From an uncultured Clostridia bacterium (GTDB lineage: Bacteria > Bacillota > Clostridia > TANB77 > CAG-508), in NCBI GenBank assembly GCA_944386685.1, contig CALXCA010000001.1, forward strand, positions 10,931 through 74,930: 64,000 nt of DNA. The letters are read 5' to 3'. Made by a program: the position numbers and the translations under genes. A model generated the notes under the pieces. The model did no database searches. It was not told where the DNA came from and saw nothing but the letters and a program-made list of their open reading frames with translations. Each line of letters opens with the position of its first letter. Positions within the stretch are counted from its first letter, which is position 1. Positions 39,719 through 41,331 of this stretch are shown here, piece after piece.

Positions 39719-40801
39719 ATGAGCATTGAATCTGACTTAAGAAAAGATGGTATAAAAATAGTTGATATATTAGACACTGTTACTGTTAATAAAATAGCTC
39801 ACAACATTGCGTCAAAGCTTTGTGAAACATTTCCAGAACTTTGTTTTAATGAAGCTGACTTATATTCAAAACTATCTAGTTTAACAATGTATCGAGCTAC
39901 TATGCCAGAGGGAATGGCAGAAGCTAATTATTTTTATAAAAATACATCTATATATTTTAATGCAAAAGTTGATACTGAGGATTTAGAAGAATTTGCAATT
40001 CATGAATGTATCCATTACATACAAGAAATTAAAGATAAAAAAAATAATTTAATCAGAATGGGATTATGTAATTTTGATGCGTTAAAAATTGTAGGAATGG
40101 GATTAAATGAAGCAGCAGTACAATTTGCTACATCTAAAGTTATTGGAATAAAAAAAGAAGCTGTAAAATATTTTGGAGTTTCTTTTGAAACAACAAGCCC
40201 ATCATATTATCCACTAGAATGTAATTTAATTGAACAATTAGCTTATTTTACAGGTGATACAATATTATTTGATAGCACTTTTACAAGTAATGATAAATTT
40301 AAAGAAGCTTTTTCTGAATTAACATCTTCTAAAACTTATCATGAAGTTGAATTATGTTGTGATCAAATTTTAGAATTAGAAGAAGAAATTTTAAGATTAA
40401 ATAATAAATTTAATTCTTATGATGAAAGAAGCTCAAAAGTAGATAAAATTGTTATAAAACAAGAATCTTTGAAAGAAAAAATTTCTGAATATTATTTAAG
40501 AGCCCAAAATACTATCATGAAAGGGTATTTTGATAAAGCTTTTAAAGCAATTACTAATCTAGAAGAATTAGATAATTATAGAAAAAAATTAGATCATTAT
40601 GGAGAGCTAATAGGAAAAACTGATACTTATACTTTCTTTGATGATTATTATACAGAAAAAATGTCACAATTAGAACATAAATCTAACGTACTTGAAAATG
40701 GTGGCATAGAAACTGCTCTTGAAGTAAAGAAACCTAATAAGGTTGTTTCTTGGTTCAGAGCACTCCTAAAATTCGTAACAGGAGATAAAATAAATAATTA
40801 A
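39719..40801 (+). CDS. HExxH-motif protein (possible ImmA/IrrE-like metallopeptidase) with coiled-coil C-terminus
   Basis: Start moved to ATG 39719, preceded by GGAGGAAAGC; the track start at 39671 is a TTG without an RBS. Contains EEFAIHECIHYIQE. The family call is weak. Confidence 0.5.
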   Translation: MSIESDLRKDGIKIVDILDTVTVNKIAHNIASKLCETFPELCFNEADLYSKLSSLTMYRATMPEGMAEANYFYKNTSIYFNAKVDTEDLEEFAIHECIHYIQEIKDKKNNLIRMGLCNFDALKIVGMGLNEAAVQFATSKVIGIKKEAVKYFGVSFETTSPSYYPLECNLIEQLAYFTGDTILFDSTFTSNDKFKEAFSELTSSKTYHEVELCCDQILELEEEILRLNNKFNSYDERSSKVDKIVIKQESLKEKISEYYLRAQNTIMKGYFDKAFKAITNLEELDNYRKKLDHYGELIGKTDTYTFFDDYYTEKMSQLEHKSNVLENGGIETALEVKKPNKVVSWFRALLKFVTGDKINN

Positions 40802-41331
40802 CAAAAGATTTTAAGTTACAAAAGATAAAATTTTTAATATATACAAAAGACTTTTATACACTAAAGATAAAATCATTAAGGTTTTATATAAATAATTTCA
40901 ACAAAAGATGTTTATACTAAAGAATTAAAAAATTATTAACAAAAGATTTTTCACTAAAGATAGTTTTACTAAAGAATTATTAAAACTATTAACAAAAGAT
41001 TTGTACCAAAGATAATTGTACTAAAGATTTTTTAATTATTAACAAAAGATAGTTGTGTTAAAAATGTTAATACTAAAGATTTGTATATACTAAAGAACTT
41101 GTACCAATGATTTATAAAAACACTTAAGAAATAAATAATGTACAAATGATTTTATTATACAAAAGCTTTTTATATACTTATGATTTTAATATACATATGA
41201 CTTCACAAAAGATGAAGTTTATAAGAATTGTTTATGTACTTGTCTATGTGCTAGATAGGCATATAACTTTACAAAAGATAAAATTTATATATGAATTTAT
41301 ACTAAAGATAATTAATTTTCTACAAAAAGAT
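40801..41331 (+). repeat. One-strand array of 22 AC[ATC]AAAGA[TA] 9-mers with an approximately 50-bp higher-order unit
   Basis: 17 exact and 5 one-off copies, all on the plus strand; positions are listed in findings. No credible ORF. Confidence 0.8.

Follow-up and report, generated by a model that had tools for sequence, protein, structure and literature searches.

A strand-specific array behind the HExxH gene

Within the 64,000-nucleotide stretch of uncultured Clostridia DNA analysed here (the window), a gene for a protein with an HExxH motif is followed directly by an array of short repeats on the same strand (Table 1). The protein carries the sequence HECIH, encoded at 40001-40015, with a conserved LNEAAVQY downstream of it, and is laid out as an uncharacterised gluzincin-like N-terminal domain followed by long C-terminal helices. 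Neither the single sequence nor a 52-member profile gave a Pfam, NCBIfam, PHROG or PDB sequence match. A Foldseek search with the AlphaFold model (pLDDT 76) returned coiled-coil/BAR-like helices only, all at E > 0.4, and neither the sequence nor the Foldseek searches gave any hint of nucleic-acid binding. The HTH_26 ORF upstream has homologues that are 83-100% identical where found. The other neighbours of the array locus are ruvA, UDG and gltD-like genes, together with two further genes that we ourselves label tatD-like and acpS-like. The HExxH gene and the convergent gltD-like gene form a conserved chromosomal synteny across 56 genomes. MITE-like elements flank the array region; among 311 loci, only the window genome and L001 have them.

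The array comprises 24 copies of AC-NN-A-N-G-NN, all on the plus strand. Its consensus is tACaAAaGAt or, in degenerate form, tAC[A/T/C][A/T]A[A/T]GA[T/A], and a variant with an extra A, ACAAAAAGAT at 41322, lies beyond the 24 copies. The first copy begins in the HExxH TAA stop codon, whose last base it shares. Copies are spaced 12-66 nt from start to start, mostly 13-25 nt, leaving spacers of 3-57 nt (mostly 4-16 nt) between 9-mer cores. The first-pass annotation of this DNA, made by a model from the letters alone, had counted 22 copies. Its 17 exact ACHAAAGAW copies are correctly placed, every one on the plus strand, and its five one-off variants (40843, 41103, 41142, 41159 and 41322) are present; the total was too low, as three copies had been overlooked (41122, ACTTAAGAA; 41176, ACTTATGAT; 41193, ACATATGAC). 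The higher-order unit of about 50 bp that it described is real, and was recovered by TRF with a period of 52 and 3.0 copies at 40896-41050. This threefold duplication is a recent event, and accounts for the unusually high copy number of the array in the window genome.

We compared motif density with expectation. The window contains 41 matches, compared to 14.5 +/- 4.0 in dinucleotide shuffles, and none of 100 shuffles reached 41. Seventeen of the matches fall within about 0.5 kb on one strand, while the remaining 63.5 kb holds 24 on both strands, making the array about 170-fold denser than the rest of the window. This rules out a composition artefact, in which the 9-mer would occur at similar density elsewhere. 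The array had no Rfam match at E <= 1, nor did the whole window at gathering scores; near the array, Rfam gave only spurious miRNA-type matches to a palindromic MITE-like element. Literature searches with the motif returned primer sequences only, and keyword searches returned nothing on such arrays.

Table 1 Features of the array locus and of the second array in the window.
Feature	Position	Strand	Description
HTH_26 (Cro/C1-type) ORF	39239-39418	+	59 aa, upstream of HExxH gene
Terminator-like hairpin	39453-39481	+	divides HTH ORF from HExxH gene
HExxH gene	39719-40801	+	360 aa; ATG at 39719, GGAGG 5 nt upstream
Array	40801-41331	+	spans HExxH stop codon to double terminator
Higher-order duplication within array	40896-41050	+	52-bp unit, 3 copies, 84% matches
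Small hairpin ACTTCA/TGAAGT	41199-41219	+	motif core sits in loop
First terminator-like hairpin	41320-41348	+	weak, -6.2 kcal/mol, nearly all A-U pairs
Strong intrinsic terminator	41347-41387	+	16-pair stem (41347-41381), -18.1 kcal/mol, T-run
gltD-like oxidoreductase gene	41683-42933	-	convergent; conserved downstream boundary of locus
Terminator hairpin of 889-aa gene	~60885-60914		abutted by mini-array
Mini-array	60912-60990	-	ACTAAAGAA x2, ACAAATGAA, shortened AACAAAGAA; 3-4 copies
Surface-protein gene	61011-63680	-	889 aa

Conservation of the array in relatives

Comparison of orthologous loci revealed both conservation in relatives and variation in copy number. An array is present in all 42 species-level genomes that have an HExxH protein at least 72% identical, on the sense strand and with 4-24 copies per species. 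The 15 more distant relatives of the sister clade have no array at the locus. The 42 arrays yielded 397 sense copies, and the antisense counts are 0-2 per locus, about six in total. In the 712 kb of related loci, groups of three or more copies are confined to the position directly after the HExxH stop codon, with two 3-copy exceptions, one in L019 (apparently within a tatD homologue) and the other the mini-array of the window. In L001 the downstream four-gene block is inverted, and the array and terminator remain attached to the HExxH gene. Thus, the array follows the gene and not the neighbourhood.

The motif itself is more constant than the sequence around it. In a comparison of five close species, variation affects 3 of 88 core columns and 18 of 136 spacer columns (Fisher p = 0.017), and the five fixed motif positions show no variation in 55 columns. 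Core positions therefore evolve slower than spacers. Spacing across the arrays has a minimum of 12 nt, modes at 14-15 and 17-18 nt, and a periodicity of about 15 (R = 0.24), with no helical phasing at 10.5 bp (R = 0.07) or 21 bp (R = 0.11).

Probable transcript end and RNA structure

No terminator-like hairpin was found between the HExxH gene and the array, as had been proposed, and the two hairpins reported behind the array are both present, the first weak and the second strong. The 5' arm of the weak hairpin is the last motif copy, which pairs with TATCTTTTT, and this hairpin is kept in the closest relatives. The strong terminator is the likely 3' end of the HExxH transcript. The first-pass inference from structure, a probable long 3' UTR that runs through the array to the terminators, is supported by the anatomy in the clade: 41 of the 42 species have a first copy that overlaps the stop codon, at offset +2, and in all 41 species with a detected terminator-like hairpin the first such hairpin stands 20-70 nt beyond the last copy and never in the gap between gene and array. 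We infer transcription through the array from the terminator positions only. Promoter-like matches inside the array number 38, compared to a shuffled expectation of 35.6.

The array RNA is weakly structured overall (z = -2.0, mostly contributed by the terminators). The predicted unpaired probability of the cores, 0.571, is slightly below that of shuffled-spacer controls, 0.602 (Wilcoxon p = 1e-4). The weak overall structure and the lack of support from this accessibility test count against an RNA reading. The sequence of the small hairpin at 41199-41219 is identical in L002, L003, L005-L007, L009 and L014, with no covarying positions.

The motif at other genes

The motif is also found in arrays at two other genes. 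In related gut contigs, the gap between mraZ and rsmH contains sense arrays of 7-10 copies and no antisense copies, with the motif spectrum and the 15-nt spacing mode of the HExxH arrays. In L297 the stretch from the mraZ array to the rsmH ribosome-binding site has no visible hairpin, indicating that this array is intercistronic. Within the window, a mini-array begins 21 nt after the stop codon of the surface-protein gene and abuts its terminator hairpin (Table 1). The two window arrays are on opposite DNA strands, and each runs in the direction of its own gene. All three contexts thus have a common layout of stop codon, sense-strand array and then a hairpin, where one is present.

A contig with an mraZ array (L182) has a run of window-gene orthologues, 71-86% identical and in the order of the window, which places the HExxH and mraZ contexts in the same or an adjoining lineage. 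In some relatives HExxH and mraZ are a few to about 20 kb apart, so one array may have seeded the other. No single genome with both large arrays was demonstrated among the loci examined, the 10 kb beyond the window start contain no mraZ and no further array, and the 20-kb mraZ loci have no DNA in common with the window. Three mraZ loci had no Rfam match at E <= 0.1. A three-copy scan of metagenomes gave 120 rows, mostly coding repeats or perfect minisatellites of other organisms, and mraZ was the one coherent context among the matches listed. A two-copy pattern scan of viral contigs found only coding KDT-type repeats and unrelated satellites. The gene contexts for the motif are few, at three.

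Comparison with known repeat systems

We compared the array with described classes of repeats. Protein-titrating RNAs of the CsrB/RsmZ and CrcZ type resemble it in carrying one short single-stranded motif many times over in one orientation and in species-variable copy number, and multivalency is the likely common point. However, these RNAs come from stand-alone sRNA genes with their own promoters, whereas the array probably lies in an mRNA 3' UTR or between cistrons; their motifs are GGA or A-rich CA in hairpin loops, whereas the array has a 9-10-mer with no evident loop display; and their partners are CsrA or Hfq/Crc, whereas that of the array is only putative. The loop-displayed GGA motif of the CsrB/RsmZ family is absent: there is no Rfam match, the motif lacks GGA and the cores are no more accessible than shuffled controls. 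TRAP (G/U)AG triplets and HutP UAG repeats of Bacillus leaders are likewise loosely regular repeats of a short word, and a sequence-specific protein recognises them and decides the fate of the transcript, as we propose for the array. They number 6-11 triplets, sit in 5' leaders with 2-4 nt between triplets, and control antitermination, whereas the array has 4-25 nine-mers at about 15-nt spacing after a stop codon.

Enterobacterial REP/BIME elements share the niche between stop codon and terminator or between cistrons, the occurrence at several loci per genome and the variable copy number, and can stabilise upstream mRNA. Each REP unit is an imperfect palindrome, about 35 nt long, that acts as a stem-loop and is found in both orientations, unlike the non-palindromic, strictly sense 9-mer with its 397 sense copies against about six antisense, and we rejected this class. 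Type III toxin-antitoxin (TA) antitoxins such as ToxI and CptI, known from gut Clostridia, are also direct repeats in A-rich RNA with a terminator behind them, transcribed there and probably here. ToxI-type repeats are regular, 34-45 nt long and upstream of an endoribonuclease toxin gene of the ToxN, CptN or TenpN type; the array has irregular units of about 15 nt downstream of unrelated genes, and is followed not by a toxin gene but by a terminator and the gltD-like gene, or by rsmH. A CRISPR array, which needs repeats of at least 23 nt and unique spacers of constant length, is excluded by the 9-mer core and the 3-57 nt spacers.

Several candidate readers of the motif and known motif classes were also dismissed. 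MraZ binds GTGG[A/T]G boxes at a 10-bp period upstream of mraZ (bioRxiv 10.1101/2022.02.09.479790). L210 has typical (A)AGTGG boxes upstream of mraZ, repeated every 10 nt. These boxes differ from the downstream ACAAAAGAT array, so MraZ is not a likely reader. DnaA boxes, Spo0A boxes, WalR/PhoP and LytTR direct repeats, anti-SD pairing, MazF UACAU sites and Hfq ARN or RL motifs were set aside on sequence grounds. Rho rut sites were set aside in the same way, as the motif has AC and not YC, and C roughly equals G.

A putative docking platform on mRNA

Our tentatively favoured reading, to which we give a little less than an even chance, is a co-transcribed 3'-UTR or intercistronic array of putative sites for a sequence-specific factor, probably an RNA-binding protein. 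The HExxH mRNA would carry the array as a 3' UTR of about 530-580 nt ending at the strong terminator. Each unit of about 15 nt would present one UAC(A/U)AA(A/U)GAU site, and the factor would most likely be an RNA-binding protein whose gene lies elsewhere in the genome. With many sites side by side, it would be able to coat the 3' UTR, and coating could set the fate of the mRNA through 3'-end stability, processing or termination efficiency. As a side effect, the factor would be soaked up in proportion to copy number. Other transcripts of the clade, at the mraZ-rsmH gap and behind the surface-protein gene of the window, use the same signal. Judged from sequence patterns, the array may well be an undescribed docking platform on mRNA. 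The analysis establishes its anatomy, strand rule and conservation, the slower change of its cores and its use at several loci; from these we infer that it acts as RNA and that a binding factor exists.

The same repeats can be read at the level of DNA, as direct-repeat double-stranded sites for a sequence-specific protein such as the 59-aa HTH_26 protein or a nucleoid-associated protein; such an array could serve as a roadblock or boundary where genes end. We consider this unlikely. DNA-binding proteins typically use 9-bp direct repeats, and such a protein would fit the array equally well, and the accessibility test gave no support for single-stranded display. Of 41 array-clade loci, 28 have an HTH_26 ORF within 6 kb, as against none of 15 sister-clade loci, but this co-distribution amounts to a single phylogenetic event. 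The 59-aa protein is a weak candidate partner, and we rejected it as the reader since no motif copy lies in the HTH (or HExxH) promoter region, its paralogues in L002, L004 and L014 have no adjoining array, and no homologue lies near the mraZ arrays. Moreover, spacing shows no helical phasing, and orientation and position relative to terminators track transcription in all three contexts. Acting on RNA but without a stable protein platform, the repeats could be endoribonuclease entry or processing sites, cleaved for example after the single G in an AU-rich context, with the effect of tuning upstream mRNA decay or of uncoupling mraZ and rsmH. RNase Y prefers to cleave after G in AU-rich single strands. 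Each unit offers one invariant G in A/U context, the architecture fits such sites as well as it fits a docking platform, and the intercistronic position in the dcw operon suits differential processing. We nevertheless judge this unlikely: the invariant AC, always 5 nt upstream of GA, implies that a word of 9-10 nt is recognised, beyond known RNase Y or RNase E specificity, and coding sequence shows no shortage of single copies, with 24 found outside the array where about 14.5 are expected.

A neutral or selfish minisatellite, in which slippage amplified an A-rich seed beside the stop codon to no function, would account for the range from 4 to 24 copies between species and for the recent 52-bp triplication; AT-rich genomes tolerate repeats, and unrelated perfect minisatellites with similar words occur in metagenomes. 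Yet the array is retained in 42 of 42 species, cores are conserved where spacers have diverged, C and G, which are rare in a 25% GC genome, keep set positions throughout 397 copies, the motif spectrum and 15-nt mode recur at a second locus, and the strand and terminator rules survive rearrangement. This makes a functionless array quite unlikely in our view. The first-pass annotation had also raised an iteron or centromere-like site from the replication or partition system of a mobile-element remnant, and this we regard as highly improbable. The sopC array stands behind sopB, and plasmid iterons and centromeres (sopC, parC, parH) are likewise short direct repeats in one orientation beside a gene; the MITE-like elements flanking the region would also fit. 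These systems, however, need adjacent rep or par genes, phased or contiguous units and mobile replicons, and the array has none of these. The locus is syntenic chromosomal DNA in 56 genomes, and blastn of 38700-41400 against plasmids and phages found no similarity. Domain scans covered three flanking ORFs in three libraries and five further neighbours in Pfam only. No Rep-type domain was detected in the HExxH protein, the HTH_26 ORF or a 291-aa ORF (Pfam, NCBIfam, PHROGs), the three flanking proteins scanned have no ParA, ParB or ParR domain, and domain scans and synteny comparison of 13-kb loci found no ParA/ParM/TubZ NTPase or centromere-binding gene. Spacing shows none of the helical phasing expected of iterons (about 11 or 22 bp), with R = 0.07 at 10.5 bp and 0.11 at 21 bp, GC skew has no switch along the window, and the MITE-like elements are restricted to two of the 311 loci. 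Plasmid or phage iterons and sopC/parC/parS partition centromeres were rejected on these grounds.

The docking-platform reading retains part of the sponge RNA suggested in the first-pass annotation. Its multivalent sites stand, and its dedicated sRNA looks less likely, because motif arrays also occur in the mraZ-rsmH operon and behind another window gene; with arrays at several genes, a cis-acting 3'-UTR or intercistronic signal is likelier. More speculatively, and less likely than not in our view, UAC(A/U)AA(A/U)GAU could define a new post-transcriptional regulon in uncultured small-genome low-GC gut Clostridia, in which an undescribed RNA-binding protein reads arrays of 4-25 sites between stop codon and terminator or between cistrons, including mraZ-rsmH, with copy number as an evolvable dial for mRNA fate or protein titration. 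Bacterial 3' UTRs are poorly understood, and RNA regulation in the uncultured Clostridia, common inhabitants of the human gut, is almost a blank. Here, more than 40 species keep one 9-10-nt word constant over hundreds of copies, always on the transcribed strand and ahead of any terminator present, and the word recurs at several genes, including the entry of the cell-division operon. It gives a concrete, testable starting point in the search for a new RNA-binding, or polar DNA-binding, protein and for its targets, and the copy-number differences between species, from 4 to 25, form a natural dose series.

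Anatomy of the array

All 17 exact ACHAAAGAW matches within 40801-41331, read directly from the sequence, lie on the plus strand, as listed by the first-pass annotation. The remaining 64-kb window holds 24 matches on both strands summed. The whole-window total of 41 compares with 14.5 ± 4.0 in dinucleotide shuffles and was reached in 0 of 100, which argues against the suspicion that the 9-mer is a composition artefact of similar density elsewhere. The core AC-NN-A-N-G-NN occurs 24 times at 40801-41309, with ACAAAAAGAT in addition at 41322; the earlier total of 22 had missed three copies (41122, 41176 and 41193). 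The first copy uses the last A of the HExxH TAA stop codon. A higher-order unit, described earlier as about 50 bp, was recovered by TRF with a 52-bp period in three copies (40896-41050), and the high copy number in the window is therefore partly the result of recent duplication. In agreement with the annotation, no terminator-like hairpin separates the HExxH stop from the array and two follow it on the plus strand: the first is weak and A-U-rich (-6.2 kcal/mol), with a motif copy as its 5' arm, and the second is strong (-18.1 kcal/mol), with a T-run.

Features of the window and of the mraZ-rsmH loci
Feature	Position	Strand	Description
MITE-like palindromic element, three copies	17684-17854, 37556-37814, 41402-41671		
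ruvA	upstream of HExxH gene		
291-aa ORF (orf291)	upstream of HExxH gene	minus	no family match
HTH_26 ORF	39239-39418	+	59 aa, upstream of HExxH gene
HExxH CDS	39719 (ATG)-40801	+	360 aa, GGAGG ribosome-binding site
gltD-like, UDG genes	downstream, convergent		labels supported by Pfam
putative tatD-like, acpS-like genes	downstream, convergent		labels are our own
Giant ORFs, two adjacent	45064-52524, 52833-60656	minus	2486 and 2607 aa; 889-aa ORF next upstream
Mini-array	60912-60990	minus	3-4 copies, between 889-aa gene stop (61011) and terminator hairpin (~60885-60914)
mraZ-rsmH array	L177, L178, L182, L201, L210, L242, L243, L248, L261, L262, L274, L280, L289, L297-L311, L318-L320 (e.g. L210:4563-4880)	sense	7-10 copies, head of cell-division (dcw) operon

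Conservation, selection and spacing

With one genome scanned per species, 56 HExxH loci were recovered, all from MAGs of uncultured gut Clostridia and with 47-96% protein identity. ACNNANGA follows the stop directly in all 42 genomes with a protein identity of 72% or more (the array clade, window included), with 0-2 antisense copies per locus. Copy number, for which the annotation had pointed to orthologous loci, ranges from 4 to 24, and the possibility it raised of an array not conserved in relatives is contradicted. The array is absent in 15 of 15 loci with no more than 65% identity. Where these have a convergent gltD-like gene, the intergenic space is 55-163 nt, except in L043 (291 nt). This sister-clade region (L043:7086-7377), which has no 9-mer array, contains TACTATTA four times and may hold an analogous array built from a different word.

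Across 712 kb of relatives' loci, clusters of at least three copies are confined to the sequence after the HExxH stop, apart from three copies in L019, apparently inside a tatD homologue, and the window's mini-array. In 41 of the 42 species, stop codon and first copy overlap. The first terminator-like hairpin lies 20-70 nt past the last copy, and never before the array, in the 41 species with a hairpin detected; none was detected at locus L041. L001 has an inversion of the four-gene block downstream, and array and terminator nevertheless remain with the HExxH gene. The logo of 397 copies reads t-A-C-[A/T/C]-[A/t]-A-[A/T]-G-A-[T] and its A/T-rich flanks are uninformative. Since the copies were chosen by the same pattern, only flanks and non-selected positions can inform.

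In aligned arrays of five closely related species that share one layout, variable columns number 3 of 88 in the cores and 18 of 136 in the spacers (Fisher p = 0.017), and none of 55 columns varies at the five fixed core positions. Start-to-start spacing has a minimum of 12 nt, peaks at 14-15 and 17-18 nt and a loose period of ~15 (R = 0.24), with no helical phasing signal at 10.5 (R = 0.07) or 21 (R = 0.11).

Arrays between mraZ and rsmH

The metagenome matches listed for three adjacent copies were mostly coding repeats and unrelated satellites. The same 9-mer was also found between the mraZ stop and the rsmH start in at least 13 low-GC human-gut contigs (7-10 sense and 0 antisense copies), and further contexts probably exist in metagenomes. 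Look-ups of MraZ homologues returned the mraZ-array-rsmH layout in many assemblies, some with a hairpin after the array. In contig L297 the array apparently continues straight to the rsmH ribosome-binding site and so appears to lie between cistrons of the dcw operon. In logo and in spacing mode (15 nt) the mraZ arrays agree with the HExxH arrays.

GTGG[A/T]G repeats have been described for Firmicutes MraZ (bioRxiv 10.1101/2022.02.09.479790). Four to five (A)AGTGG boxes with a 10-nt period lie just upstream of mraZ in L210 (4070-4125) and match these expected binding repeats; with such boxes of its own, MraZ is not a likely reader of the array.

On the mraZ-array contig L182, orthologues of window genes 1-528, 604-1323 and 1610-2533 keep their order, with identities of 71-86% to the window, 70-80% to array-clade loci and 63-69% to an outgroup, which places the mraZ arrays in the same lineage or an adjoining one. 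Among the loci compared, the two arrays were not seen together in any single genome. In some relatives the HExxH and mraZ loci are apparently separated by a few to ~20 kb, and the arrays may therefore have a common origin and not be independent. The HExxH gene of Clostridium sp. CAG:440 (L051) directly follows a gene for a penicillin-binding protein, and a homologue of that gene is found upstream of mraZ in L318. In one strain, an insertion with an IS605-family OrfB/TnpB (Cas12f-like) gene and a Transposase_31-like ORF lies upstream of the gene for the penicillin-binding protein close to mraZ (L320:4744-6824).

The mini-array comprises ACTAAAGAA twice, ACAAATGAA and a shortened AACAAAGAA; the adjoining 889-aa protein has a C-terminal end that looks hydrophobic. 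The window's two arrays lie on opposite DNA strands, each running in the direction of its own gene.

RNA or DNA

The anatomy and conservation of the array are solid; its mechanism we infer. Common to the three contexts is the order of stop codon, sense-strand array and, where present, hairpin (in L297 the rsmH ribosome-binding site instead), which fits a transcribed cis element. That the array serves as an RNA-level platform is a real possibility, if somewhat short of probable, and a variant in which the copies are RNase sites is unlikely. As a caution on the RNA reading, selection on core accessibility found no support, cores being predicted unpaired in 57% compared with 60% with shuffled spacers. 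In its working the array would most resemble multi-site protein-binding RNAs (CsrB/RsmZ, CrcZ, TRAP sites), but it has neither the GGA motif nor the loop display of CsrB/RsmZ. It occupies the niches of REP/BIME elements but its motif has no palindrome, its repeats are far too short for CRISPR or ToxI, and no toxin gene follows it. The array fails the defining features of each family compared; it had no Rfam match, and a literature search found no description of such an array.

It is rather unlikely that the copies act as double-stranded DNA sites. Loci of the array clade often encode the 59-aa HTH protein (28 of 41) and those of the sister clade never do (0 of 15), but this co-occurrence amounts to a single phylogenetic event; moreover, the motif is absent from the promoter of its gene, its paralogues lack an adjoining array and the surroundings of the mraZ arrays contain no homologue. 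Cooperative binding on one face of double-stranded DNA usually imposes helical phasing, and the copies show none. This also weighs against the iteron or centromere of a mobile-element remnant proposed in the first-pass annotation, which we consider very improbable: no rep or par gene was found among the neighbours scanned, and the convergent HExxH-gltD arrangement is kept in close and distant relatives, which, judged by synteny, marks a stable chromosomal locus and no mobile-element remnant. Slippage clearly drives changes in copy number, but a neutral minisatellite is quite improbable; the slower change of cores than spacers, retention in 42 of 42 species and the fixed C and G, rare bases at 25% GC, argue against a neutral slippage product.

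The HExxH protein and its surroundings

The HExxH protein had no sequence match in Pfam, NCBIfam, PHROG or PDB. Its family is uncharacterised and small: among 1.84 billion representative proteins it accounts for 330 clusters (50% identity), with lengths of ~340-380 aa (window 39719-40801 and family proteins P0001-P0270). HECIHxxQ is conserved and followed ~30 residues on by LNEAAVQY, a gluzincin-like pattern. In the AlphaFold model (pLDDT 76), the N-terminal part is alpha/beta and the C-terminal part consists of long helices. A 52-member profile matched nothing in PDB or Pfam and Foldseek returned only coiled-coil-type noise; the protein thus offers no clue to nucleic-acid binding.

The 59-aa HTH_26 ORF, in which the first helix of the domain model is missing, shows 83-100% identity between species, a higher conservation than that of its neighbours; some genomes have paralogues elsewhere in the locus (e.g. 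L002:709-885, L004:934-1110, L014:751-927).

GC content is ~25%, and GC skew shows no switch across the window, which is therefore neither origin nor terminus. The MITE-like element has terminal inverted repeats of ~41-46 nt (98% complementarity), attached 22-bp GGACCGACCCC repeats and one ACAAAAGA word in the central part of each copy, and gives spurious miRNA-type Rfam matches. Two copies in inverted orientation (141 nt, 95%) flank the orf291-HTH-HExxH-array block; beyond the window, the element occurs in L001 only among 311 loci compared. A tRNA gene, recognized by eye ~2.5 kb beyond window coordinate 1, is an insertion hotspot, with an integrase-bearing prophage-like element present in some strains (L314:13054-20720, L316:13054-20720) and absent in others (L312:12638-13913).
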